DNA of 64,000 nt, taken from contig JBHAZV010000006.1 in NCBI GenBank assembly GCA_041781135.1, positions 8,276 to 72,275 on the forward strand, in the 5' to 3' direction. This DNA is from Acidaminobacteraceae bacterium (GTDB lineage: Bacteria > Bacillota > Clostridia > Peptostreptococcales > Acidaminobacteraceae). Shown here piece by piece: positions 1,372-54,630 of the stretch; position 1 is the stretch's first letter; each line of letters opens with the position of its first letter. The notes under the pieces were generated by a model, which did not search any database, was not told the DNA's origin, and was given only the letters and a program-made list of their open reading frames with translations. The translations under genes were made by a program, and so were the position numbers.

Positions 1372-2712
1372 TTAACCAACAATAATTTTGCCGACGGGAT
1401 TTTTCAGCTTGCCCGTATTCCTCGGCTGAACCACCGCCATAAAAACCGCAAGACTCCCGACACGCCCGGCGTACATTAACAGAATAATCGTGATTTTCGA
1501 CAAAACAGTAAGCTCGGGAGTTATACCGACAGTGAGCCCCACAGTGCCTATTGCAGACAAGGATTCAAAAGCGGCGGCGCCAAGCGGCTGACCCTGCGCA
1601 CATAGGATCAGGATGCCGCACGCCGTCATCACAAGGTATATCGCCGCACCGCTAAAAGCGCGCCTTATAACCTCCGGCTCCAGTCTAAAATGGAAAATAT
1701 TTACATCTTCTCTTGCTCTGAGCTGTGCCGCCACAGAAGCTACGATCACGGCAAACGTCGTCACTTTTATGCCGCCTCCTGTGCCGCCGGGTGCAGCTCC
1801 TATCAACATTAGCAACATTATGACAAATTTACTTCCATCTGACATGGATGCTATATCGATGCTGCTAAATCCTGCCGTACGCGGCGTTATTGACTGAAAC
1901 AAAGCCGAAAGCATGCGCGTGCCGGTGTCCATCCGGCGCATAGTCCCGTCGTATTCAAGAATAAAAAAGGCGGCGGTTCCGGCAAGCAGAAGCGCCAGCG
2001 AGAAAAACAGCACGACCTTTGTATGCAGATGCAGGTACTTAAAGCGGAATTGACTCTCTATCAGATCATTCCATACCACAAACCCAATGCCGCCCGACAT
2101 AATGAGCACAGCCACAGTGAGAAGTACGACAGGATCGTCATAAAAACTTGTAAGAGAGGAAAACTGCGACCGCACTCCCATCAGATCGAAACCCGCATTG
2201 CAAAAAGCGGATACAGAATGAAACAAGGAAAACCAAATTCCGCGCCAAAACCCGAATATCGGAACAAAGCGAGTTGCCAAGAGCAAAGTGCCGATTCCCT
2301 CAAAAAATGCAGTGCCTATCAGCATTCTGCGAACAAGCCTGACCACTCCGCCCACCTGCATATAGCCGACCGCCTCTGCCAGCAGAGAGCGCTCCCGAAG
2401 GCCGATCCGCCTGCCGACGGCAAGAGAAAACAGTATGGCGACTGCCATAAACCCAAGTCCGCCAATTTGAATAAGCAGCAGGATTACCGCCTGTCCAAAA
2501 TACGAAAACTGAGTCCAAGTGTCATATACTGCAAGCCCTGTCACACAAGTAGCCGATGCGGATGTAAAAAGTGAATTCAGGAACGGTACACCGGAATCGC
2601 CTCGACTCGCCTCAGGCAAGCTAAGAAGCAACCCTCCAACCAAAATGAGCGCCGCAAATCCAAAAGAAATGACTTGAGTGGCGCTCAGCTTTTTAGCATT
2701 CACTGCCGACAC
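1372..2712 (-). CDS. ktrB: K+ transporter membrane subunit (TrkH/KtrB family)
   Basis: 446-aa polytopic protein with repeated pore-loop glycine motifs (TCVTGLAV, CNAGFD, TPRTAGF, IGTVGLTVG). GTG start at 2712 with AGGGAG just upstream. Adjacent to ktrA. Confidence 0.85.
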   Translation of the reverse strand: MSAVNAKKLSATQVISFGFAALILVGGLLLSLPEASRGDSGVPFLNSLFTSASATCVTGLAVYDTWTQFSYFGQAVILLLIQIGGLGFMAVAILFSLAVGRRIGLRERSLLAEAVGYMQVGGVVRLVRRMLIGTAFFEGIGTLLLATRFVPIFGFWRGIWFSLFHSVSAFCNAGFDLMGVRSQFSSLTSFYDDPVVLLTVAVLIMSGGIGFVVWNDLIESQFRFKYLHLHTKVVLFFSLALLLAGTAAFFILEYDGTMRRMDTGTRMLSALFQSITPRTAGFSSIDIASMSDGSKFVIMLLMLIGAAPGGTGGGIKVTTFAVIVASVAAQLRAREDVNIFHFRLEPEVIRRAFSGAAIYLVMTACGILILCAQGQPLGAAAFESLSAIGTVGLTVGITPELTVLSKITIILLMYAGRVGSLAVFMAVVQPRNTGKLKNPVGKIIVG

Positions 2713-2836
2713 TCCCTGACTTTGCCGGCAAAAATTTCATGACATCCACCGCCTTTCCGTACAACAATATCAGAAAGAGTATAATGGCAGTGTCCTATTT
2801 GCATACCCATGTATTATTTTTGTGTAAAGATTGCAA

Positions 2837-2883
2837 GTACATTTACTATACACAACAAAACATAACAAATATAGTAAATGTAC
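2837..2883. repeat. Perfect 14-bp-stem hairpin GTACATTTACTATA-N19-TATAGTAAATGTAC (module 1)
   Basis: Arms 2837-2850 and 2870-2883 are exact reverse complements. AT-rich, with no U-tract. Confidence 0.8.
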
Positions 2884-4111: not shown

Positions 4112-5935
4112 TTAAATATTATTAACACCTTGTTTGCCCAATAAACCCTTAACTTCATATACATTTACACTCTGCTGCTTTCCCTTTACGCTGAGCGCTC
4201 CAAGCGGTGCAGCGACAACCCTGTTCTCTACGAGCCTGTATGTCGATTCAGATATGAGTATCTGTCCGGGCTTTGCGTTGCTTTCGAGCCTCGCTGCTGT
4301 GTTTACAGCGTCGCCTATCGCAGTATAGTCAAGTCTGTGCGAGGCGCCGATATTGCCGACGATAGCATCACCGGTATTTATTCCTACCCCGAAGCTGACT
4401 GTCCTTCCGTATTTCTCCATAAGATTTTTGGAAAGCTTTTCAGCTCCGCTCTGCATATGCAGCGCAGTTTGCACAGCACTGTATGCGTGGTCCTCTATTT
4501 CGAGCGGCGCTCCAAAAAGCCCCATTGCCGCGTCGCCGATATACTTGTCAAGAGTGCCGTCATATTTGAAAATCGCCTCTGCACAAAGGTCGAGGTACTC
4601 GTTCAAAATACCGACCACTTGCTCAGGTTCCAATTTTTCCGACATCGTAGTAAACCCACGTATATCGACAAAGAGCACAGATATATTTTTCTTTGTACCT
4701 CCAAGACCGAGCGCGTCCTCTCCGCCTCTGAGCAGCCTGTCGACCAGCCGCGGCTCCATGTACTTGCCAAAGACATTTGTGACCCTGCGCCTCTCCAAAG
4801 ACTCCTGTACATACTTTACCACATTTATCACGACAAATACGAAGAACACTGACGACAGCGGATACAGAAGGCTGAATATGTAACCGGCCTTCAGCCTCGA
4901 AAGCGACACCGCGCACCATACGAACGCAGCCATCAGGGCAAAAGTCGCGGCAGCTCCGTAAAGAAGTCTAAGCCTTGAAAACAACACTATCGCAAATGCT
5001 GATATCAGCAGCAATACAGCAATTTCGAGATATATCGGCATCCGCACCCAACTGAGCTGTTCGCGCATCTGCTGAATAATATTAGCGTGCACTTCTATGC
5101 CGTACATAGGATATGTTCTGTCAATGGCGGTAAAATAATAATCATCCGCCAGACCTATTGCGGTGACCCCCACCAGCACTACCTTGTCCCTGAAATATTC
5201 GGGGTCCACCTCTCCTGTCAGCACCATGTAGTATGGTACTTGCTCAAACGTACCTGCTCTTCCTGCATACCTGATATATGCCATTTCAAACGCATCGGCA
5301 GGAAGCAGCTGCAAATCGGAGGATTCTTCGGCATTTTTTCTATATGCCTCCCGAAATATGGCGCTCGCAAAGCTTTCGACTATTTTGTCGCCATTTTTAA
5401 TTTTTAGAACCGTCTTTCGCAAAATACCGTCCGAATCGGGGATAGTATTGATATGCGCAGTGTTTACATGTTTTCCCAGCAACTCAGTAGGCATATTGAA
5501 TATAAACGAGGATATCATCCCCTGCGCGGCGCTTTCGTCAAATACGCCATACCCTGCGAAAATCGGCTTTTTTGAGAGTTTCGAAAGACTTTCGGCAAAT
5601 TCGGCATCCGCATCGCTTTCTTCCATAAACAGCAAATCAACGCCTATCGCCTTAGGATCGCCGCTGTCGATAATTTCGAGCAGCATTCCATGGTAAGACC
5701 TATGCCATGGCCATCTGCCGAGCACATCCAGACTTTCGTCATCAATTGCCACAATTACAACATCCGTAGAAAGCTCCCGGTCTCTCTGATACACTAAATC
5801 GTCTATAAAATAATTTATGTCTTCGAATACATCAAAATACAGAAAAACTGCAAACAGAAGCGCTACAAATGACGACAAAACCACCGCAGCGTACCTGCCC
5901 CTGATAAATCCTCTGCTTTTGATAAATCCTTTCAT
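4112..5935 (-). CDS. CHASE2-domain class III adenylate/guanylate cyclase
   Basis: 607 aa with an N-terminal TM, an extracytoplasmic region, a TM cluster and a cyclase catalytic domain (VLFVDIRGFTTMSE...YIGDAAMGLFGAP...GINTGDAIVGNIG...YTAIGDAVNTAARLES). Confidence 0.85.
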   Translation of the reverse strand: MKGFIKSRGFIRGRYAAVVLSSFVALLFAVFLYFDVFEDINYFIDDLVYQRDRELSTDVVIVAIDDESLDVLGRWPWHRSYHGMLLEIIDSGDPKAIGVDLLFMEESDADAEFAESLSKLSKKPIFAGYGVFDESAAQGMISSFIFNMPTELLGKHVNTAHINTIPDSDGILRKTVLKIKNGDKIVESFASAIFREAYRKNAEESSDLQLLPADAFEMAYIRYAGRAGTFEQVPYYMVLTGEVDPEYFRDKVVLVGVTAIGLADDYYFTAIDRTYPMYGIEVHANIIQQMREQLSWVRMPIYLEIAVLLLISAFAIVLFSRLRLLYGAAATFALMAAFVWCAVSLSRLKAGYIFSLLYPLSSVFFVFVVINVVKYVQESLERRRVTNVFGKYMEPRLVDRLLRGGEDALGLGGTKKNISVLFVDIRGFTTMSEKLEPEQVVGILNEYLDLCAEAIFKYDGTLDKYIGDAAMGLFGAPLEIEDHAYSAVQTALHMQSGAEKLSKNLMEKYGRTVSFGVGINTGDAIVGNIGASHRLDYTAIGDAVNTAARLESNAKPGQILISESTYRLVENRVVAAPLGALSVKGKQQSVNVYEVKGLLGKQGVNNI

Positions 5936-5945
5936 AGACGCGCTC

Positions 5946-6881
5946 CTAAATATCTATCACAGAGCCGTCGCGCGCGCAGAAAGCGCCATCAAATATCGAA
6001 GAAGCTCTCGCCTCGATTTCGTCGAGTTCGGCATCTTTTCTGCGCTCTCTGTGGTGAAACAGCGCAAGCGCTTTTACACCAGCCGACGCTGCAAACGCAG
6101 AGGCATATTCGTAGCTCGAATGTCCCCAGTCCGTTCTGTCTACGCCGTCCAAAGCGCCAAGCATCTCGTCTCTGGCAAAAAAAGCGTCGTAGATGAGCAA
6201 ATCCGCACCGCGAACAAAGTCGGCAAATGCCGCAGCGCGCTCCCCGACAAGCTCCGAAGTATCAGTCGCATATACGAACACCCTCCTGCCGGACGGCAAG
6301 CGCTCCGTAAGCCTGTACGCTATCGAGCCTCCAGGATGACAAAGCTCAAATATATCGACACGCACATCTTCAGACAACGCGACCCCGCCCGCACCGACAC
6401 ATTCAAACACAATTCGGGCAGGGTAATTGCTGAGCGTAAACGGCAAAAACGGCGGACTGATAAATCGTTCGAATACCCTGCGCAGCGCGTCGCCGTGCTC
6501 CGTGCCTTGCCCGGAGCGCGTATCAGAAATTTGTTCGTCACATTGCCCGGTACACTCTGCACTATTTTGTCTGTCACCCCGACCAAAGCGCCATGCCGGA
6601 TTTCCGGCATATATATGCACCTCGGTCGAACCATCAAAAAGCGGTGCAAAAAACGGCAAGCCCTGTATGTGATCATAATGCATATGCGAAAGAAATATGT
6701 TGTATACTTTTGTTTGAGGGTATTCAGAAGCCAAAAATTCGGTTATGCCCGTCCCTGCGTCAAAAAACACCAAAAGCCCACCGGCAGAAACTTCCACGCA
6801 GCTTGTATTTCCTCCGTATTTAACGTACTCATCGCCCGAAACAGGTAATGTGCCTCTAGTACCTCTGATTTTGATTTTCAT
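5946..6881 (-). CDS. MBL-fold metallo-hydrolase
   Basis: HxHxDH motif (LSHMHYDHIQGLPFF), and 311 aa is typical of the beta-lactamase fold. Confidence 0.7.
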   Translation of the reverse strand: MKIKIRGTRGTLPVSGDEYVKYGGNTSCVEVSAGGLLVFFDAGTGITEFLASEYPQTKVYNIFLSHMHYDHIQGLPFFAPLFDGSTEVHIYAGNPAWRFGRGDRQNSAECTGQCDEQISDTRSGQGTEHGDALRRVFERFISPPFLPFTLSNYPARIVFECVGAGGVALSEDVRVDIFELCHPGGSIAYRLTERLPSGRRVFVYATDTSELVGERAAAFADFVRGADLLIYDAFFARDEMLGALDGVDRTDWGHSSYEYASAFAASAGVKALALFHHRERRKDAELDEIEARASSIFDGAFCARDGSVIDI

Positions 6882-9524: not shown

Positions 9525-9618
9525 TGGCGAGGGCGTGTGAGAATCGAACTCACCAAACCAGCAACCCAGTTTAGCCGGTTTTGAAGACCGGTAGGCACAC
9601 CAGCACCTATCCGCCCCC
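9525..9618 (-). tRNA. selC: tRNA-Sec (anticodon UCA)
   Basis: Hand fold of the minus strand:
- acceptor GGGGGCGG (one G.U and one terminal G/A mismatch);
- AU linker;
- D stem AGGUGC-UGGU-GUGCCU (6 bp, 4-nt loop);
- anticodon arm CCGGU-CUUCAAA-ACCGG;
- 21-nt variable arm;
- T arm GUGAG-UUCGAUU-CUCAC;
- 3' strand ACGCCCUC, then G-CCA.
This is the same 8+2+6+4+6+1+5+7+5 layout as E. coli selC, and it is 94 nt long. Confidence 0.88.
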
Positions 9619-46776: not shown

Positions 46777-48288
46777 CTAAGCCGCCAGTTCATACACAAA
46801 CCCGACAGGCTCGCCGTAATTATGATAAAAATCGTCGATAATCGGTTCGAGTGGATCGCCATACCAGTCGTGACCTTCCCTGAAGTAGTCAAAACGATGA
46901 TCATTTGATAATACATCGAGTTCCATATTAAAGTATTCGCTTACAGGCGCTAACGACTTAAAAATGCCATCGCGAAGCTCGTTTTTATTATCCCATGTAG
47001 AATCCACAACCATCCATTTCCCATTTACAAACACGACATTCCAGGCATGATTGTTGGTATCGACATCGAATTGATCGGTCATCGCATTGTGTCTGATCGG
47101 TCCCACCACTTTTGTAGCAGGAATGCCCTGAATTCTGCACATATCCGTCAGCAATATGGACATCCCCCAGCACTGAGTAAAGCGATGTAAGATTATTAGG
47201 GCGCTGGTATCAACGTTGAAACCTTCTTGCTCGCCCCCGCCGAGATCCTTGTAATCAAAGTTATAGTATACATGGCGAGCTATCCAGTCGTGCATTGCGC
47301 GGACCTTTTCATAATCGGTTGTAAGCCCTTTGCATATCTCATCTGACAGTTTCCTTATGGCAGTATACTCCTCCTGACTGAGCTGCGCTTTGCTGAGATA
47401 GTACTCAGGTGCAAGCAGAGAATTGTATACTTCATAATTGTTTTCCACAGCATCGGACTTCTTAAATACCAATTTGCCGTTCACTCTTTCAATATTAATA
47501 ACTCCGTCGTAAATGCTGTTAAAAATATACAAATCTTCATTCTCCGAATCGTTCGACCGCACATCTATGTACACCTTGTAGCTTCTATTGCCGTTTATAT
47601 CAAAATATCCACTGAACGACTTGTCTGATTGGAACTTATGATAACCAGAGTTGCCGTCATGCACGATTTCATTCTCTATGTACAATTCCTCAGTATCACT
47701 AAGGATATGCGGAATAACATACACATTAATATAATTGGCGTCGTAATATGAAAGCATGCCCTCGTAGTAAACTCGATTGCCTCTTATTACAAGTTTAAAA
47801 TAATTGTTTTGATCGAGACTAGTGATCAGATAATTATCATAAAGCAAACCCGGAATCAAAGGCTTTGAGCCATCCGAAGTCATTCCGACCGCTTGGATAT
47901 CGCCATCCCAGACGACTTTCACGCCAAATGCCTCGCTTACTGCGCGCAAAGGAACGAGAGTCCTCCCACCATTTATTACAGGAGCAACATCGATTTCGGC
48001 AGCTTTTCCGTTGATATACATCGTATTGCTACCAATTGCAAGCTTTACGTTAAGATCGTTGCCACCATCGGCAGTTATGCTTCTTGTATCGGCATCCCAG
48101 GTTACTTCTGCGCCTAATTTTTCAAATATTGCCCTCATCGGAACCATCGTCCTGCCATCGATGATCATCGGCTCGACATCAAATTCCATTTTTTTGCCGT
48201 TCATGTACACGTCAATTGCAAATATCGGAGCTGCAAGTACGACCAGCACTACCAAAATAACCGTGACCCTTAGCATTAACTTTTTCAT
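46777..48288 (-). CDS. Secreted protein: 2 copper-amine-oxidase-N-like (stalk) repeats + transglutaminase-like core
   Basis: ORF 46777..48384. ATG 48288 follows AGGGGG (signal MKKLMLRVTVILVVLVVLAAPIFA). Repeats GRTMVPMRAIFE and GRTLVPLRAVSE. Catalytic-like C/H/D in QCWGMS, NHAWNVV, VDSTWD. Confidence 0.7.
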   Translation of the reverse strand: MKKLMLRVTVILVVLVVLAAPIFAIDVYMNGKKMEFDVEPMIIDGRTMVPMRAIFEKLGAEVTWDADTRSITADGGNDLNVKLAIGSNTMYINGKAAEIDVAPVINGGRTLVPLRAVSEAFGVKVVWDGDIQAVGMTSDGSKPLIPGLLYDNYLITSLDQNNYFKLVIRGNRVYYEGMLSYYDANYINVYVIPHILSDTEELYIENEIVHDGNSGYHKFQSDKSFSGYFDINGNRSYKVYIDVRSNDSENEDLYIFNSIYDGVINIERVNGKLVFKKSDAVENNYEVYNSLLAPEYYLSKAQLSQEEYTAIRKLSDEICKGLTTDYEKVRAMHDWIARHVYYNFDYKDLGGGEQEGFNVDTSALIILHRFTQCWGMSILLTDMCRIQGIPATKVVGPIRHNAMTDQFDVDTNNHAWNVVFVNGKWMVVDSTWDNKNELRDGIFKSLAPVSEYFNMELDVLSNDHRFDYFREGHDWYGDPLEPIIDDFYHNYGEPVGFVYELAA

Positions 48289-48392
48289 TTTAGCCCCCTT
48301 TCTCTTATAATCAATATTATACACCAAAACCCGATAATTTTTTGATAAAATCAAAAGCGCCGCCCAATCGGCAGGGGTTAACACAGAAAAAT

Positions 48393-48467
48393 CACATATC
48401 TAAGTAATATCTGTCTAAGCCTTATCTGTCCAAACCGTATCTGTCTAAACAATATCTATCTGAGCCT
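48393..48467. repeat. Five tandem 15-bp repeats (consensus TATCTGTCTAAnCCn)
   Basis: Units at 48393, 48408, 48423, 48438 and 48453: cacaTATCTAAGTAA / TATCTGTCTAAGCCT / TATCTGTCCAAACCG / TATCTGTCTAAACAA / TATCTATCTGAGCCT. The last unit overlaps the metI stop codon. Confidence 0.8.
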
Positions 48468-49148
48468 TTTATCCATTCGCTTTGCAAGCCTGTCGCCTAT
48501 CGCCTGAACCGCAAATACCAGCAAAACGAGCGCAATCACAGCAAAGATCATAACAAGAGTCTTGTAACGGTAATAACCATAATTTATTGCTATCTTTCCA
48601 AGGCCTCCGCCTCCTATTATTCCGCTCATTGCAGAGTATCCAAGTATAGTAGTAAAGGCAATAGTAGTTCCGGAAATAAGAGAAGGCACGCTTTCGGGTA
48701 CAAGAACCCTTGCGACTATCTGAAAAGGCGATGCTCCCATACTCTGCGCAGCCTCTACTATATTGGGATCGACCTCCCGTATCGACGACTCCACGAGTCT
48801 GGCAACAAACGGAAATGACGCTATCACTAATGGCACGATGGATGCAAATGTTCCGACCGCAGTACTTGCTATAAGCCTTGTCAGAGGCACTGCAAGCATC
48901 ATTATTATTAAAAACGGCACCGATCTCAAAAGATTTATTAAAGAGCCGACAAACGCGAGAATCGGTCTTGGTACTCTAAGCAAATCGCCTGCTGCAAGGA
49001 GCAGACCTATCGGCATACCGATGATCAGAGAAAATAAAGTTGAAAGTAATGTGACATAAACCGTCTCATATATTGCAAGCGGAAACTCTCTGACAAGTAT
49101 GTCGAATGCTTCTACAACATTCTTTTCTGCAAATACATTTTGAATCAT
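48456..49148 (-). CDS. metI: Methionine ABC transporter permease
   Basis: 230 aa. MetI-like N-terminus and an EAA-type loop (VEAAQSMGASPFQIV). Confidence 0.85.
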   Translation of the reverse strand: MIQNVFAEKNVVEAFDILVREFPLAIYETVYVTLLSTLFSLIIGMPIGLLLAAGDLLRVPRPILAFVGSLINLLRSVPFLIIMMLAVPLTRLIASTAVGTFASIVPLVIASFPFVARLVESSIREVDPNIVEAAQSMGASPFQIVARVLVPESVPSLISGTTIAFTTILGYSAMSGIIGGGGLGKIAINYGYYRYKTLVMIFAVIALVLLVFAVQAIGDRLAKRMDKRLR

Positions 49149-50209
49149 TATTCCTCCTCGCCCGGCGTATTAAGCAGCGAATTGCCCGGCGCGTCACACT
49201 GAGCACCCGAATCTCCAAGCTCTATTTCTTCGGCAAATATGTCGTTTTCACTTCGCAGAAAATCGATCGCCGCACACAGCTCCCTGTCGCCTCCGGATAT
49301 GCCCAGCAGCATATTTCCATATACTCTGCCCTCAATATTTCTCGTATTTGCAGAAAGTATATTTGCTCTTATGCCTTTATCCTGCGCAAGAGTCGCGATA
49401 AGCGGTGTATTTGTAGCTCTTTCGCCCCTGAATACCACTCTTATGTAACGCTCGCCCCGCGCCGACACCGCAAGCTCCTGCGGGTACACAAGCCTTTTTG
49501 CGGCATCTGAACGCGGGCTTGCAAAGACGTCAGAAACCCTGCCGGATTCCGCAAGCCTGCCTCCATCAAGTATGGCTACGCGGCTGCAAACTTCCTCCAC
49601 TATAGACATCTGATGAGTGATAATAACTATCGTTATTCCTAATTTTTTATTTATCTCACGCAAAAGTTCGAGCACAGAGCTCGTCGTCTTCGGGTCGAGC
49701 GCACTGGTCGCCTCGTCGCAGAGCAGCACCTTGGGTTCGGTTGCCAGCGCCCTTGCTATCGCAACCCTCTGCTTTTGTCCTCCCGATAACTGCGAAGGGT
49801 ATGACGCCGCCTTATCCTCCAGACCGACAAGCGCAAGCAGCTCACGCGCGCGCTTTTCCGCAGCTTTCTTTCCGGCTCCCGCAAGCAGCATCGGAAAACA
49901 CACATTTTGCAGGCAATTTCTCTGGAGAAGCAGGTTAAATCCCTGAAATATCATTGCAATACTGCGCCTCATCTGCCTGAGTTCTCTGTCATTCAAAGCT
50001 CCAATGTCCACCCCGTCTATTACGACACTCCCGCTTTCCGGTCTTTCGAGCATATTGATGCACCTCACAAGAGTGCTCTTGCCCGCCCCGCTCATGCCGA
50101 TGATTCCAAAAATTTCGCCGGTTTCAATCGTAATGGAAATATCGCGAAGTGCAGCCACATCTCCGGAAGCGGCCGAAAACGTCTTGGTAAGTTTGGTGAT
50201 CTCTATCAT
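49148..50209 (-). CDS. metN: Methionine ABC transporter ATP-binding protein
   Basis: Walker A GMSGAGKST, LSGGQKQRVAIARAL, a C-terminal NIL/ACT-like domain. ATG 50209 follows AGGAG. Confidence 0.9.
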   Translation of the reverse strand: MIEITKLTKTFSAASGDVAALRDISITIETGEIFGIIGMSGAGKSTLVRCINMLERPESGSVVIDGVDIGALNDRELRQMRRSIAMIFQGFNLLLQRNCLQNVCFPMLLAGAGKKAAEKRARELLALVGLEDKAASYPSQLSGGQKQRVAIARALATEPKVLLCDEATSALDPKTTSSVLELLREINKKLGITIVIITHQMSIVEEVCSRVAILDGGRLAESGRVSDVFASPRSDAAKRLVYPQELAVSARGERYIRVVFRGERATNTPLIATLAQDKGIRANILSANTRNIEGRVYGNMLLGISGGDRELCAAIDFLRSENDIFAEEIELGDSGAQCDAPGNSLLNTPGEEE

Positions 50210-50295
50210 GCATCTCCTCTCATTCACAAACAAACGCAGCGCTCACGCGCAGGCAGAGACAGATCCGCCGATACGCGCAGGCGCTGCACCGATAA

Positions 50296-51219
50296 CTATT
50301 TTATTTCTTCCAAGGACTTAAGTTTTCCGCCGTAAATCCCCATCGGTTCAACGTGAACAACAGATACCGGCACTATATTCGTTCCCTGCTCAGCATTGAA
50401 ATTATCGAGGTACGGCACATGCTGGAAATAATTAGCATCTATGTCGCCGCTCTCTACAGCAAGGTTCGGCTGTACATAATCGGTGAACTCCACAATCTTT
50501 AGAGTGATGCCCTTTTCCGCCAATATTTTTTCTGCAACTGCAAGTATTTCCGCGTGCGGAGTAGGCGATGCGCCTACAGAGATTGTCTTGCCTTTCAGAG
50601 CTTCGTAATCAAGCGCAGAGTCGTAACCATCCGTTAATGTCTCTGCTACAGATATTACCCCGCCGCCGTATTTTTCGGCAATAAAATCCGCTACCTGCCT
50701 GCTCTCAAGCGCCGCAACGAGCGCCTTTACAAGATCGCTGCCCTCATTGCCTTTTTTAACCGCAAGTATATTGCCGTAAGCCGAATAAGAGCCCTCTATT
50801 GCCACAGAATCTGTCACCGGATTAAGTCCGGCGTCTATTGCATAGTTGGAGTTTATCACCGCAAAATCGACATCTACGAGCACATTCGGAAGCTGTGCTG
50901 CCTCAACCTCAAAAAACTCGATATTGTAAGGATTTTCGACAATATCCCGCGGGGTTGCCGCAATTCCCGCATCATCCCTGAGCTTGATAAGCTCGTTAGC
51001 CTGAAGCAGCAGAAGCGCCCTCGCCTCATTTGTGGTGTCGTTAGGAACGGCTATCTTTATGCTTTTCTGCGACCCCACCGCCGAAGTCGTCTGTTCTTCC
51101 GATGACGCCGCAGAAACGGAAGCGCCTGAAGTTGCCTGCGTATTTCCGCACGACGATACCAAAAGCGCCGAAGCTAATACAAAAAGCGCCACAGTTAATT
51201 TCACCAAATTTTTCTTCAT
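50296..51219 (-). CDS. metQ: Methionine-binding lipoprotein (MetQ/NlpA family)
   Basis: Lipobox LLVSSCG and MetQ-like body. The preferred start is ATG 51219, 5 nt after GGAGG. The track start is 51231. Confidence 0.85.
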   Translation of the reverse strand: MKKNLVKLTVALFVLASALLVSSCGNTQATSGASVSAASSEEQTTSAVGSQKSIKIAVPNDTTNEARALLLLQANELIKLRDDAGIAATPRDIVENPYNIEFFEVEAAQLPNVLVDVDFAVINSNYAIDAGLNPVTDSVAIEGSYSAYGNILAVKKGNEGSDLVKALVAALESRQVADFIAEKYGGGVISVAETLTDGYDSALDYEALKGKTISVGASPTPHAEILAVAEKILAEKGITLKIVEFTDYVQPNLAVESGDIDANYFQHVPYLDNFNAEQGTNIVPVSVVHVEPMGIYGGKLKSLEEIK

Positions 51220-51322
51220 CATTTCCTCCATGCGATTAAATCGCTGATTATTTGCCGCGCCTAAGATAAATCATCCTTATCCCGCGCCCCCTCTGACAAG
51301 GGCAAAGTCTTTGGGTCAGAGA

Positions 51323-51352
51323 TAAAAAAAGAGGGAGAGTAACTCTCCCTCT
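51323..51352 (-). terminator. Intrinsic terminator between the Met-rich ORF and metQ
   Basis: Minus-strand RNA is AGAGGGAGAG-UUA-CUCUCCCUCU, a perfect stem of up to 10 bp, followed directly by a U-run (51324-51330). Confidence 0.8.
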
Positions 51353-51374
51353 GTCCTCAAAAACTATTATGCGG

Positions 51375-51488
51375 TTATACGCGCGCTATCGGGGGGTTAC
51401 ACTTAAAATTTTGTTCAGCAAGACACATGCACATCATTATGCACATGTTCATAGACATATTCATCATTGTCATTGCTGTGAAATTCAA
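51375..51488 (-). CDS. 37-codon Met/Cys-rich small ORF: (M)NFTAMTMMNMSMNMCIMMCMCLAEQNFKCNPPIARV
   Basis: AAGGAGG (rc of 51494-51500) lies 5 nt before TTG 51488, and the stop TAA is at 51375-51377. There are 9 internal AUG and 4 UGY codons, mostly within codons 6-22. Below the track's size cut-off; translated by hand. Confidence 0.5.
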   Translation of the reverse strand: MNFTAMTMMNMSMNMCIMMCMCLAEQNFKCNPPIARV

Positions 51489-51639
51489 GCCTGCCTCCTT
51501 ATTTTCGCCATTCGTATTCATAACACGAACAACATTGACGCAACTGTAGCACGCAGGATTTGCATTGTCCAGTTAATTTTTTGTAATTTTTATCGCCAAA
51601 TCACATCATGCTGTGTTGTCGCCACCGTCTGTCAAGCCA

Positions 51640-52680
51640 TTACTTAACAGGACAAAGATCTTCCTTACCTGTGAGCGACTTTATAAAATCGACCAGAAGT
51701 TTTATTTCAGCTTCTATGTCCTTGAGATTGACGACCTCGCTCGGAGAATGCATGTAGCGAAGCGGCAGAGATACCAGCGCAACCGGAACACCGGCTCCCG
51801 TAAAACGCATTGTGTCGGCGTCCGTGCCTGTCCTGCGCGGAGCGAGCTCGTACTGTATATCGTGCTTATTCTTTTTTGCAGATTCTATCAGCATATTGTT
51901 TACCACCCTGCTCACCTGCGGACCAAAAGCTATAACCGGCCCTCCTCCGAGCTTTACATCCCCGTCCTTTGCAGCCGAAGAGCTTGGATCATCCGTAGCA
52001 AATGTCACGTCACACGCGATTGCAATACTTGGCTTTAGAGATGACGCTGCAAAATATGCGCCTCCCTGATTTGTCTCCTCATTTACAGTACTGACAGCGT
52101 GAAGCGCCACATTTATTTTTTCCTTTGCAAGCTCCTTTACCACTTCGGATATTATAAACAGCCCGCTGCGGTTGTCGAGCGCCCTGCCAACAACATTATT
52201 ATTTTGAAGGTAATCCAGATTCAGATCATATATTACATAGTCGCCTACGCTGACTATTTTCTTTAGTTCCTTCCCATCCTTTGCGCCGCAGTCGATAAGC
52301 AGACCATCCACATCGAGCTCGCCCTTCTGGCCTCCCTTGTGTTCAGGCGGCACGGCAACCACTCCGATGATCGTCTTTTTACCGAGAACCCTCACTCTGC
52401 TGCCGATTGCCGGCTTTGCGCTAATACCGCCTATTGCGGCGACAGAAATATAACCCTTGTCGTCGATGTGGCGTACCATGAACGCGATCTCGTCAGAGTG
52501 CGCTGCCAAAAGTACACTGAAATCAGCCCCTCCGTTTAGGGTCGCAATCACATTGCCCGCACCGTCAGTGCTGATCTTGGCGTATTTTTTCATTTCGTCC
52601 TTCCAAAGCTTTTGGATACCAGCCTCCGCACCCGACGGCGACGGAGTAGATATCAGCTTTTCAAAAAATCCTAAATCCAT
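51640..52680 (-). CDS. M42-family aminopeptidase (FrvX/YsdC-like)
   Basis: 346 aa. Motifs: AAHSDEI, GRALDNRSG, VNEETN. Confidence 0.8.
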   Translation of the reverse strand: MDLGFFEKLISTPSPSGAEAGIQKLWKDEMKKYAKISTDGAGNVIATLNGGADFSVLLAAHSDEIAFMVRHIDDKGYISVAAIGGISAKPAIGSRVRVLGKKTIIGVVAVPPEHKGGQKGELDVDGLLIDCGAKDGKELKKIVSVGDYVIYDLNLDYLQNNNVVGRALDNRSGLFIISEVVKELAKEKINVALHAVSTVNEETNQGGAYFAASSLKPSIAIACDVTFATDDPSSSAAKDGDVKLGGGPVIAFGPQVSRVVNNMLIESAKKNKHDIQYELAPRRTGTDADTMRFTGAGVPVALVSLPLRYMHSPSEVVNLKDIEAEIKLLVDFIKSLTGKEDLCPVK

Positions 52681-52733: not shown

Positions 52734-53792
52734 TTACTTTGCATTTATATAGCGCTGCAATGTTTCAGGGTTGATGCTAAAATGCTTTGCATCGACCTCA
52801 GTTATAAGCCCGTCCTTATAAAGCTGGGCAAGTGAGTAATCCATGCTTATCATTCCCTCGGCGCGTCCTGAATGAATCGCAGCCTCTATCTGCGGGATTT
52901 TACCCTCCCTGATGAGGTTTCTGATAGCATGATTTACTATCATGATTTCGAATGCCGGAACTCTGCCGCCGCCTATTTTCGGCACTAATTGCTGAGATAC
53001 CACCGCTTTGAGCACTGTCGAGAGCTGAATCCTGATCTGATCCTGCTGATTGGAAGGGAATACGTCGATAACCCTGTCCACAGTCTTTGCGCCGCCCACG
53101 GTATGCAGAGTGGAAAGCACCAGATGCCCCGTCTCTGCGGCAGTCATAGCTATTGACATAGTCTCGTAATCGCGCATTTCGCCTATAAGTATGACATCAG
53201 GCGCCTGCCTGAGCGAAGCCCTGAGCCCCGCATGATAAGACTGAGTATCTATTCCTATTTCACGCTGATTTACAATGCTTTTGTCATGCTTGTGTATGAA
53301 CTCGATAGGGTCTTCTAAAGTGAGGATATGGCACTGCCTCTCACGATTTATCCTATCTATTATGCACGCAAGAGTTGTAGACTTTCCGCTACCGGTAGGG
53401 CCGGTTACGAGCACGAGCCCCTTGGTGAGATTCCTGACATCGAGGACCTCCTCTGGTATCATGAGTTTGCCCGTATCCAATATGTCGAATTTAAGCACCC
53501 TTATTGCAGCAGCGTGCGAATTCCTTTGAACATACACGTCTATCCTGAACCTTCCTACACCGGGGACCGAATACGAAAAGTCGAGCTCACCCCTCTTCAA
53601 AAACTCGTTGTACTTTACATCGTCCGAAAATAACTGATGTATAAGTTCGCGAGTGTCATTCGGCATAAGAGGTGCAGTTCCATATTTTTCCAAATTGCTG
53701 TCTATCTTAAATACCGGCGGAACACCGACTGTGAGAAAAATATCCGATGCATTTTTCTCTACTCCGATTTTCATAAGTTCTGTAATATGCAT
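52734..53792 (-). CDS. pilT: Type IV pilus retraction ATPase PilT family
   Basis: ORF 52734..53864. ATG 53792 follows GGAG. Walker A GPTGSGKST, plus LTLEDPIE, GEMRD and AIRNLIREGK. Confidence 0.85.
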   Translation of the reverse strand: MHITELMKIGVEKNASDIFLTVGVPPVFKIDSNLEKYGTAPLMPNDTRELIHQLFSDDVKYNEFLKRGELDFSYSVPGVGRFRIDVYVQRNSHAAAIRVLKFDILDTGKLMIPEEVLDVRNLTKGLVLVTGPTGSGKSTTLACIIDRINRERQCHILTLEDPIEFIHKHDKSIVNQREIGIDTQSYHAGLRASLRQAPDVILIGEMRDYETMSIAMTAAETGHLVLSTLHTVGGAKTVDRVIDVFPSNQQDQIRIQLSTVLKAVVSQQLVPKIGGGRVPAFEIMIVNHAIRNLIREGKIPQIEAAIHSGRAEGMISMDYSLAQLYKDGLITEVDAKHFSINPETLQRYINAK

Positions 53793-53800
53793 AACAACTC

Positions 53801-54205
53801 CTATCTTTTTATTTCGCCGTATTCGAGCAGTTCTGTATCGAAAATCCTCTCTGTCTCGTACCACGCCAATATTTTGAAATTATCTGTTCGCAGCTCTACA
53901 TAAAAGCTTCGCTCTCCGAGCGCGACACTGTAAATGATTTTTTGAGGGTTTACAACCGGATCGATGCAGCCCAGCGATATAAGTTTTTCAACAGTTATCT
54001 CTCCGCGTTCGAGACCGACTATAGCCGCATAACATCTGTCCGCCTCTGATTCGAGCAAGTAGTAATCCCGAAGCTGGTCGCTCATACGCTTTGAAAGCCT
54101 GTAGCCCGAATTACTCATACCCACCGATAACACCGACAGCGAAACGAGCAGCACGATTATAAGAATCACGAGAACCGTCGAGCTTCCGCTTCTTTTATCA
54201 ATCAC
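53801..54205 (-). CDS. Hypothetical pilus-cluster protein with N-terminal TM helix
   Basis: GTG 54205 lies 5 nt after AGGAGG and overlaps the upstream stop (GTGA). The hydrophobic N-terminus is SSTVLVILIIVLLVSLSVLSV. Confidence 0.45.
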   Translation of the reverse strand: MIDKRSGSSTVLVILIIVLLVSLSVLSVGMSNSGYRLSKRMSDQLRDYYLLESEADRCYAAIVGLERGEITVEKLISLGCIDPVVNPQKIIYSVALGERSFYVELRTDNFKILAWYETERIFDTELLEYGEIKR

Positions 54206-54630
54206 TTCTGCCTCCTGTAGTGCAGGTACTTCGTCATGCCGCATACCTCCGAATCATCGCGGAACGCCGCGACGTCTATCTCCAGCCTCTCTTCACTGAA
54301 ACTAAGTTCGACTCTCACCAAAAGACCGCTTTCGGTAAAAAAATCTGTTTTACCCTTTCCGCCCGAAATATCGAAATGCATTCCCGCAGCACTCACTTTG
54401 CCGTTTTTTTCACCGGAGCGGTATTGCTCAAAAAAATCTTGGAAATCCTCGTATGACATTCGCTCCAGCAGGTCAACCGCAATGAATGTAGCCTCGTCAT
54501 TGTCTGCGGTGCGATCCATAAGCCTGTCCGACGAAAAAAACACCTGCGCTATGATTGCAGCCGCCACCGCAACGATTGCAGCCGACAGTATTATTTCGAG
54601 CACTGTCAGCCCGCTTCGTTTTTTATTCAT
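54202..54630 (-). CDS. Prepilin-type N-terminal cleavage/methylation-domain protein (pseudopilin)
   Basis: MNKKRSG/LTVLEIILSAAIVAVAAAII matches the G-(F/L)T(L/V)xE prepilin motif. Confidence 0.65.
   Translation of the reverse strand: MNKKRSGLTVLEIILSAAIVAVAAAIIAQVFFSSDRLMDRTADNDEATFIAVDLLERMSYEDFQDFFEQYRSGEKNGKVSAAGMHFDISGGKGKTDFFTESGLLVRVELSFSEERLEIDVAAFRDDSEVCGMTKYLHYRRQK

Follow-up and report, generated by a model that had tools for sequence, protein, structure and literature searches.

How is methionine import controlled in a Clostridial genome whose importer operon is preceded by neither an S-box (SAM-I riboswitch) nor a T-box? The controls ascribed to methionine in Firmicutes are S-box riboswitches, T-boxes and protein regulators. 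Leader-peptide attenuation is a textbook mechanism, but the amino acids for which it has been established are Trp, His, Leu, Thr, Phe and Ile/Val; an attenuator built on Met codons would be conceptually odd, because methionine also starts the leader peptide. The question arises from a 64,000-nt stretch of contig JBHAZV010000006.1 (Acidaminobacteraceae bacterium, assembly GCA_041781135.1), here called the window in its full length, in which a short open reading frame (ORF) dense in Met and Cys codons, followed by an intrinsic terminator, lies immediately upstream of the methionine importer genes metQ, metN and metI. We think it likely that this leader is a translation-dependent, Met/Cys-responsive transcription attenuator governing metQNI; most likely it would switch the importer on when methionine is short, perhaps sensing Cys-tRNA besides Met-tRNA. 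As far as sequence and folding can inform us, the features support assignment to the class of classical leader-peptide attenuators, of an unusual kind in that methionine would be sensed, the leader's own ribosome-binding site would act as region 1 and the regulatory codons would themselves form a hairpin.

The leader ORF, its terminator and the metQNI operon

The elements on which this proposal stands, all on the minus strand and given in the order of transcription, are the following.

51543-51571, minus strand: candidate sigma-70-type promoter from a promoter scan, with -35 TGGACA at 51571-51566, a 17-nt spacer and a TG-extended -10 TACAGT at 51548-51543
51494-51500, minus strand: Shine-Dalgarno sequence AAGGAGG of the leader ORF, read directly, with a 5-nt spacer to the TTG start
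51375-51488, minus strand: leader ORF MNFTAMTMMNMSMNMCIMMCMCLAEQNFKCNPPIARV, 37 codons plus TAA, TTG start, read from the sequence and with homologues in 42 of 80 orthologous loci
51423-51473, minus strand: putative Met/Cys regulatory codon run, codons 6-22 by codon count (9 AUG, 3 UGY)
51323-51359, minus strand: intrinsic terminator seen in folds, with 5' arm (region 3) UGAGGACAGAGGGAGAG at 51359-51343, loop UUA, 3' arm (region 4) CUCUCCCUCU at 51339-51330 and U7 at 51329-51323
50296-51219, minus strand: metQ, methionine-binding lipoprotein and first gene of the proposed regulon, with GGAGG at 51229-51225 and ATG at 51219 (PF03180, TIGR00363/NF008285)
49148-50233, minus strand: metN, ABC ATPase with a NIL domain, longest ORF from 50233, with a start at 50209 implied by annotation of a metagenome-assembled genome (MAG) (TIGR02314)
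48456-49148, minus strand: metI, permease (NF008049)

Read on the minus strand, the leader ORF runs from its TTG start at 51488-51486 to a TAA stop at 51377-51375. The peptide MNFTAMTMMNMSMNMCIMMCMCLAEQNFKCNPPIARV contains 9 internal Met (codons 6, 8, 9, 11, 13, 15, 18, 19 and 21) and 4 Cys (codons 16, 20, 22 and 30), and 12 of these 13 fall inside codons 6-22. A first-pass annotation of this DNA had described the ribosome-binding site with its 5-nt spacer, the TTG start, the 37-codon frame, the same Met and Cys counts and a perfect terminator 22 nt past the leader stop, and our reading agrees with it in each of these particulars. The terminator in particular is confirmed exactly: its core stem AGAGGGAGAG-TTA-CTCTCCCTCT (51352-51330) is a 10-bp perfect helix that begins 22 nt past the stop and is followed by T7 at 51329-51323. 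In the fold the stem is extendable to 16 bp, pairing 51359-51343 with 51339-51323, and the hairpin folded alone has an energy of -16.6 kcal/mol. The Met/Cys richness of the ORF far exceeds chance: no other Met-rich stretch turns up in any of the six frames of the 64-kb window, and the ORF has 12 Met plus Cys per 17 residues where the next best has 5. The ORF is uncalled in annotations of same-species MAGs, and a protein search with its 48-aa form, using a method that requires shared 5-mers, returned no candidates.

Family matches bear out the gene order metQ, metN, metI and the distance of about 100 nt to metQ that had been described at first pass. The metQ product belongs to the MetQ/NlpA family (Pfam PF03180 at 3.5e-84, plus TIGR00363) and the metN product matches TIGR02314 at 5.9e-105. 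The metQ start at 51219, with its GGAGG 5 nt upstream, is also the start used in same-species MAG annotations and lies 103 nt past the U tract. An exact look-up of the 311-aa form of MetQ gave no record, and the 307-aa form was found in many same-species MAGs. The leaders in these MAGs are 100% identical and are thus uninformative on variation.

Conservation and genomic context of the leader

We examined 80 loci encoding MetQ relatives at 58-72% identity, drawn from GTDB species-representative genomes (Clostridia-type MAGs or isolates). The first-pass annotation had made its reading depend on conservation of the ORF in relatives, and this is what we find: a short Met/Cys-dense ORF on the same strand, 90-560 nt upstream of the metQ match, is kept together with a terminator in 42 of the 80 loci (for example MKKLSNAMMMMYMCMCRMCMFRRAHFGQKLSETCLTA and MKRRSMAMMMCEMCMGMMSMCMFLRAQNDRLLSKNCLTA). 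With the window leader, these 42 orthologous carriers make up the 43 leaders considered below. Their ORFs span 25-46 codons, with the Met run typically at codons 8-21; the carriers hold 7-13 Met plus Cys per 17-residue window, and over all 43 ORFs Met accounts for 22% and Cys for 9% of codons. In every leader a ribosome-binding site of GGAG/AGGAGG type precedes a start codon, which is ATG in 40. AUG triplets are in frame 328 times as against 23 and 2 times in the other phases, a bias that is partly by construction, since Met content guided the choice of frame. All 43 likewise carry a terminator-like hairpin and U tract, placed 18-48 nt past the leader stop (median 27), with stems of 10-16 bp in 40 leaders and 5 bp in three. 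Most carriers bear the label Oscillospiraceae, Ruminococcaceae, Christensenellaceae, Anaerovoracaceae or 'Clostridia', and loci labelled Lachnospiraceae are without the leader. As a separate observation, one carrier locus (L034) has a cobalamin riboswitch at 5809-6006 (+), directly downstream of its met transporter operon with Met/Cys leader.

Promoter placement points to a single transcript that includes both leader and importer. All 43 leaders are preceded by a near-consensus promoter, which ends 30-59 nt before the start codon; its -35 element is exactly TTGACA in 39, its spacer measures 17 nt in 41 leaders and 18 nt in 2, and its -10 element resembles TAnnAT, in many cases with TG upstream. 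In the interval from the terminator to metQ, where no convincing promoter had been noted at first pass, the window offers just a weak 9/12 promoter-like match and the other leaders offer matches at random level only. In four loci, moreover, the terminator is only 21-51 nt from the beginning of the MetQ match. From the random-level matches and these short gaps we conclude that metQ must be transcribed through the terminator.

Known riboswitches do not account for the locus. An Rfam search of 51150-51750 at E<=10 returned no SAM riboswitch, T-box or other riboswitch, in keeping with the initial view that S-box and T-box leaders are missing here; at gathering score, nothing relevant was found in the whole window, and zero SAM riboswitches were found in the 80 orthologous loci. 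Weak Rfam matches to sraA, DUF3800-I and DapZ cover the terminator hairpin only and were set aside. In the 38 orthologous loci other than the carriers, a Met-rich window is absent from all six frames of about 6.8 kb each, and away from the leaders such windows are all but missing from the carrier loci too. T-boxes (Rfam RF00230) occur at four of the 80 loci only (L006, L036, L057 and L065), with AUG in the apparent specifier position, and all four are without the leader ORF; this replacement of the ORF by a Met T-box supports the idea that the leader reports methionine status. One of these loci, L036, also carries a TwoAYGGAY RNA (RF01731, 103 bits) at 2673-2837 (-), on the opposite strand between the T-box leader at 2331-2582 (+) and metQ.

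The same arrangement emerges from metagenomes when the search makes no use of genes. Scanning with the bare DNA pattern ATGATGATGNNNATGTGCATG, without gene information, gave 120 metagenome loci that reduced to 119 distinct matches, 79 of which have the short-ORF-plus-terminator layout. Among these 79 the next gene is MetQ in 53, MetN in 13 (a metN-first order), an O-acetylhomoserine sulfhydrylase in 4 and something else in 4, the last comprising two rearranged contigs and two chance matches. Those four aside, the leader associates with genes of methionine import and synthesis. The 428-aa sulfhydrylase scores 561 bits with TIGR01326 (O-acetylhomoserine/O-acetylserine sulfhydrylase), whose cutoff is 495.

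Several further observations concern individual contigs. Five loci (L093, L180, L193, L197 and L175) have a very short leader with its own terminator before the O-acetylhomoserine sulfhydrylase gene (metY), which may comprise 14 codons, MMMSMCMCNRFRRV, if the first AUG of the run is the start; such leaders extend the element from methionine import to methionine synthesis. In L131 (~740-1000) and L172 (~4203-4450) the leader and terminator are complete and divergence sets in exactly at the metQ ribosome-binding site, leading in L131 to HPr/PTS enzyme I genes and in L172 to unrelated sequence, a pattern that could reflect strain rearrangement or chimeric assembly. On soil contigs L098, L111, L116, L138 and L151 the pattern also matches a conserved, longer membrane-protein ORF with LPCMMMMFMCMKHGT; because this ORF is unrelated to met leaders, ATGATGATGNNNATGTGCATG alone is non-specific.

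At the protein level, a profile built from 26 leader peptides, with a 41-aa first row, was compared with a collection of 5.8 billion proteins and recovered 214 clusters of 32-68 aa, in which no Pfam domain was found and 'hypothetical protein' was the sole descriptive name. Neither Pfam nor NCBIfam has a model that matches the leader peptides. An N-terminal MKK and a central MCM are conserved among them, and one 35-aa variant is present on at least 1000 contigs, lying upstream of metQ-metN-metI in the contigs read. The leader element is widespread in gut Clostridia and unannotated in Rfam, Pfam and NCBIfam.

The neighbours of the operon, in the regions 46777-48384 (-) and 52734-54630 (-), are a protein with copper-amine-oxidase-N-domain/transglutaminase-like character downstream and an M42 peptidase upstream; a PilT-like type II/IV secretion ATPase and small ORFs with hydrophobic N-termini are found past the peptidase. 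Compared with the MetQ/NlpA models of Pfam and NCBIfam, the window MetQ appears to be circularly permuted, its residues 51-189 corresponding to profile positions 115-255 with a second matching stretch after. MetQ proteins of canonical order (for example on contigs L094 and L113) have the two halves reversed with respect to it, and all 80 MetQ relatives (L001-L080) align in the order of the window protein. Elsewhere in the window, a selenocysteine tRNA gene at 9529-9618 (-) (RF01852, 74 bits) indicates that the organism probably makes selenoproteins.

Alternative RNA helices, the proposed switch and its rivals

The segments that bear on alternative folding of the leader, all on the minus strand, are listed here; regions 3 and 4 are the terminator arms given above.

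51507-51533, minus strand: 5' untranslated region (UTR) hairpin GUUGUUCGUGUU / AAUACGAAUGGC, 12 bp, seen in minimum-free-energy (MFE) folds between the predicted transcription start and the leader ribosome-binding site
51484-51498, minus strand: region 1 GGAGGCAGGCUUGAA, comprising the leader ribosome-binding site and start codon, 5' strand of a predicted anti-antiterminator helix (MFE fold)
51425-51448, minus strand: run hairpin ACAUGUGCAU / AUGUGCAUGU, 10 bp, formed by the Met-Cys-Met codons in folds
51391-51407, minus strand: region 2 UUUAAGUGUAACCCCCC, a pyrimidine tract near the 3' end of the ORF, which in folds pairs with region 1 or with the terminator 5' arm

When leaders are folded without the terminator 3' arm, the pyrimidine tract (GCUUUCC in most leaders, AACCCCCC in the window) pairs in many of them with the purine-rich terminator 5' arm (GGAAGG or GGGAG). 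In MFE folds of full leaders, by comparison, a long-range helix 1:2 encloses the Met run in 37 of 43, with such pairs as GGAAAGCAAC with GUUGCUUUCC, GGAGAGC.CUGC with GCAGGCUCUCC and GGAGAACAGCCG with CGGCGUGUUCUC; the window helix joins 51498-51484 to 51407-51391 over 12 bp. We assessed these pairings by permutation, comparing the duplex energies of native pairs with those of cross-locus pairs among 35 non-redundant leaders. For 1:2 the mean is -19.3 kcal/mol in native and -14.6 in cross-locus pairs (p<=5e-5), and for 2:3 it is -13.2 and -11.6 (p ~1.5e-4), whereas the control pairing 1:3 gives p=0.37. A replication set of 15 non-redundant metagenome leaders, including subfamilies outside the first set, yields the same pattern (1:2, p<=2.5e-4; 2:3, p ~0.002; control 1:3, p=0.33). 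Pairings 1:2 and 2:3 are thus lineage-specifically complementary. A clear signal needed both defined segments and a set free of redundancy: a first duplex test of the whole post-run region against the terminator arm gave p=0.12; an anchored flank test, in which the best 6-mer core was fixed and its neighbours tested, gave p=0.2-0.3, the core search having already absorbed the covarying positions.

Constraint on region 2 acts at the RNA level. Its variants take the form CUY-UCY only, and one subfamily translates GCUUUC as Leu-Ser whereas it encodes Ala-Phe in the MTAYRSGMMMMCMCM...PVPAFLCA subfamily. The codon run has structure of its own: AUGUGCAUG (Met-Cys-Met) is self-complementary via G·U pairs, and RNAalifold recovers an equivalent of the run hairpin, 9 bp long, in 22 relatives. 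The commonest non-Met codons in the runs are UGC (61) and CGC (14), followed by GAG, UCC and UAC at 7 each, and by inspection UGC, CGC or UAC between two AUGs creates self-complementary octamers. The native codon order of the run is more stable than shuffled orders (mean z -1.1), with 9 of 35 loci at <=5%. Cys codon choice was also considered as a sign of structural selection and set aside as uninformative, UGC:UGU being 66:5 in the runs and 34:5 in metQ.

These elements suggest how the switch could work. Transcription would start from the promoter at 51571-51543, and a ribosome would load at AAGGAGG/TTG. With Met-tRNA and Cys-tRNA plentiful, it would pass the 17-codon run, cross region 2 and arrive at the stop; region 2 would be masked by the ribosome or, after release, recaptured by region 1, and regions 3:4 would form the terminator and stop RNA polymerase before metQ. 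If charged tRNA-Met or tRNA-Cys were scarce, ribosomes would stall and queue in the run, about 5-14 codons past the start codon, so that region 1 would be occupied and region 2 free; 2:3 pairing could then block the terminator and allow read-through into metQNI. With zero translation, 1:2 and 3:4 would both be expected to form, giving a superattenuation like that of the trp operon. The Met-Cys-Met hairpin possibly serves as a pause or coupling signal.

The spacing of the leaders is consistent with ribosome footprints. The pyrimidine tract typically starts about 27 nt past the last Met codon (exactly 27 in 15 of 31 located tracts; range 19-31), which would place region 2 beyond the reach of a ribosome stalled there. 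Where the terminator arm finds its best partner in this tract, region 2 in most leaders ends 5-9 nt before the stop, and a terminating ribosome would therefore cover it. The terminator stem never starts less than 18 nt from the leader stop, so that the same ribosome would not block the stem. Taken together with the lack of a riboswitch or a visible independent promoter and with the conservation of the ORF, this lends support to the leader-peptide attenuator suggested at first pass; the ribosome choreography, the response to Met and Cys and the role of the Met-Cys-Met hairpin are what we infer from it.

Several points weigh against such a switch. The first-pass annotation had found no antiterminator helix competing with the terminator 5' arm; the 2:3 and 1:2 pairings overturn this for the family, and it retains some force for the window, whose own antiterminator, CCCCCCGA with UUGAGG..GGG, is weak (-8.5 kcal/mol versus -16.6 for the terminator) and whose full-length MFE fold always shows the terminator. 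The window leader starts with TTG, as against ATG in 40 and GTG in 2 of the other 42. The long-range helices were not recovered by MAFFT plus RNAalifold, which returned no consensus structure at all for whole leaders and the run hairpin alone for their 5' two-thirds; in the MAFFT alignments region 1 is out of register because the spacer from ribosome-binding site to ATG varies. As sequence alignments missed these helices, their support comes from energy-based permutation tests and not from column-wise covariation. Among the 80 orthologous loci, 34 have neither the leader ORF nor a T-box. A leader terminator is missing from 27 of these 34 as well, in many of them metQ apparently lies behind another gene, and an Rfam search of 10 of them at E<=0.01 gave zero matches. 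Methionine starvation, moreover, lowers fMet-tRNA and hence initiation on the leader, which should favour termination in a switch so designed, and we can only infer how a ribosome stalled late in the run would prevent 1:2 pairing.

Other explanations of the locus fare considerably worse. It is very improbable that the ORF encodes a functional sulfur-rich micropeptide, metal-binding or membrane- or transporter-associated, with the hairpin ending the small gene's transcript and metQNI expressed separately. Given the strong ribosome-binding site and its conservation, the ORF is almost certainly translated; Met/Cys-rich peptides can bind Cu(I), and the conserved MKK N-terminus and central MCM would suit a peptide with a function. 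On the other hand, no conserved promoter-like element lies between terminator and metQ, a gap of about 20-50 nt in some loci. The peptide varies freely outside the Met/Cys run, the tract after the run is kept as nucleotides (CUY-UCY only) while being read in two frames that differ between subfamilies, and the element travels only with the met genes metQ, metN or metY. The peptides have zero Pfam or NCBIfam family matches, and the neighbours are an M42 peptidase and metQNI, not the dedicated genes for modification or export that would suit a micropeptide or a RiPP (a peptide made on ribosomes and modified after translation). The micropeptide alternative that the first-pass annotation had kept in view is accordingly disfavoured. 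A dual role in cis and as a peptide is possible by analogy with the peTrpL leader peptide, for which one is reportedly known.

Slightly less probable still is that the leader ORF acts mainly on metQ translation or mRNA stability, or via Rho. The mycobacterial poly-Cys leader ORFs do work translationally, and the weakness of the window antiterminator would be accommodated. Set against this are the canonical intrinsic terminator and U tract in 43 of 43 leaders, with constrained spacing, and the lineage-specific complementarity of region 2 to the terminator arm; leader pairing with the metQ ribosome-binding site is not apparent in the folds, which received no dedicated examination for it.

The least probable of the three is that the AUG-rich RNA is itself a ligand or protein site, an unknown riboswitch or a target of a TRAP-like triplet-repeat binder, that decides between terminator and antiterminator: the second CAUGUGCAUG is nearly invariant in nucleotides, the run forms a conserved hairpin and B. 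subtilis TRAP offers a precedent for control by triplet repeats (PMC3064811), but in every leader a strong ribosome-binding site and a start codon precede the run by 5-14 codons in its own frame, and a stop in that frame is placed 18-48 nt ahead of the terminator; the AUGs keep their phase across variable codons (by the counts given above, in a frame chosen for Met content), alignment gaps within the run come in multiples of three, no Rfam family matches, and the triplets are spaced by 0 or whole codons in a single frame with ribosome-binding site, start and stop, unlike TRAP-type targets, whose triplets have 2-3 nt spacers, are tied to no one frame and do not depend on translation.

Returning to attenuation by the translated leader, we advance a broader version more tentatively, rating it a little short of an even chance. 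In gut Clostridia, mainly Oscillospiraceae and relatives, the leaders may form a widespread class of Met/Cys attenuators for metQNI/metNIQ import and for metY, in which the leader's own ribosome-binding site and start serve as region 1, three inputs (fMet initiation, and elongation with Met-tRNA and Cys-tRNA) are combined, the run hairpin perhaps acts in pausing or coupling, and the Streptomyces metL leader discussed below might be a distant relative.

Significance and comparison with known systems

If confirmed, the attenuator would explain how methionine uptake and synthesis are controlled in many abundant gut Clostridia in which we see no S-box or T-box at these loci, and it would fill a gap among the amino acids to which attenuators respond; we know of no validated leader-peptide attenuator for methionine, with or without cysteine. 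It would also give annotators a new model for a small gene and cis-regulatory element, the ORF at present being either left uncalled or named 'hypothetical protein', and the engineering of anaerobes would gain a compact switch that responds to Met and Cys.

The nearest mechanistic relatives are the classical attenuators of Proteobacteria (trpL, hisL, leuL, thrL, pheL and ilvL; Rfam Trp_leader and His_leader). Like them, the Clostridial leader has a short 5'-leader ORF rich in pathway codons followed by an intrinsic terminator, exclusive helices 1:2, 2:3 and 3:4, and a stop placed so that a terminating ribosome would mask region 2. It differs in that methionine and cysteine would be sensed, in its Clostridial hosts and in its target, which is an importer and, in relatives, also metY. 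The part of region 1 falls to the ribosome-binding site and start codon of the leader itself and not to the regulatory codons, which here form a hairpin of their own; the ORF is long for the class, at 25-46 codons with 7-13 regulatory codons, and has no Rfam model match.

In the searchable literature we looked for Met leader peptides of Clostridia, for strings from the peptides and for an upstream ORF of metQ, and found only one related prediction, so that the initial statement that Met leader attenuation is not established in Clostridia agrees with the publications found. That prediction is the 'metL' of Streptomyces lividans TK24 (MSTTSDRTPATEATTTPGARCMCRRMCAF), proposed upstream of metNIQ as a Met-dependent attenuator in one paragraph and a table row (PMC8079986). 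It resembles the window leader as a short ORF before a methionine importer with a terminal Met/Cys motif, its CMCRRMCAF being close to the window's MCMCRMCMF. In contrast to the Clostridial leaders it is leaderless, without a ribosome-binding site, and has 2 internal Met codons only, and according to its authors a typical Rho-independent terminator is missing (PMC8079986). It was predicted without comparative support, and its likeness to the Clostridial leaders is one of motif alone; if the two were truly related, the motif would point to a cross-phylum solution.

Cysteine-sensing leaders offer a second comparison. Mycobacterial poly-Cys leaderless ORFs sense cysteine and act translationally, with no terminator (bioRxiv 10.1101/834739), and a 2005 survey of Actinobacteria found Cys leader peptides and no RNA element for methionine (PMC1262725). 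Common to these and to the Clostridial leader as we propose it is an upstream ORF that senses a sulfur amino acid via tRNA charging, in RNA that doubles as a helix strand. The mycobacterial and Actinobacterial leaders differ in being leaderless, in having consecutive Cys codons at the 3' end, and in sequestering a downstream ribosome-binding site with no intrinsic terminator, whereas the window has a 5' UTR and ribosome-binding site, Cys codons interspersed with Met, and a canonical terminator.

Within the Firmicutes, Met T-box and S-box (SAM-I) leaders share with the Clostridial leader a position before metQ/metNIQ and an output through terminator and antiterminator; they differ in their sensor, as uncharged tRNA or SAM binds the RNA in those systems and the translating ribosome is the sensor proposed here. 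Leader peptides have also been described before hisS and hisZ in bacilli; Naville and Gautheret (2010, PMC2965389) presented these His leaders as the first Firmicute examples of 'regular' leader peptides. They differ from the Clostridial leaders in amino acid, lineage and sequence, and resemble them as Firmicute attenuators that replace a T-box at orthologous genes.

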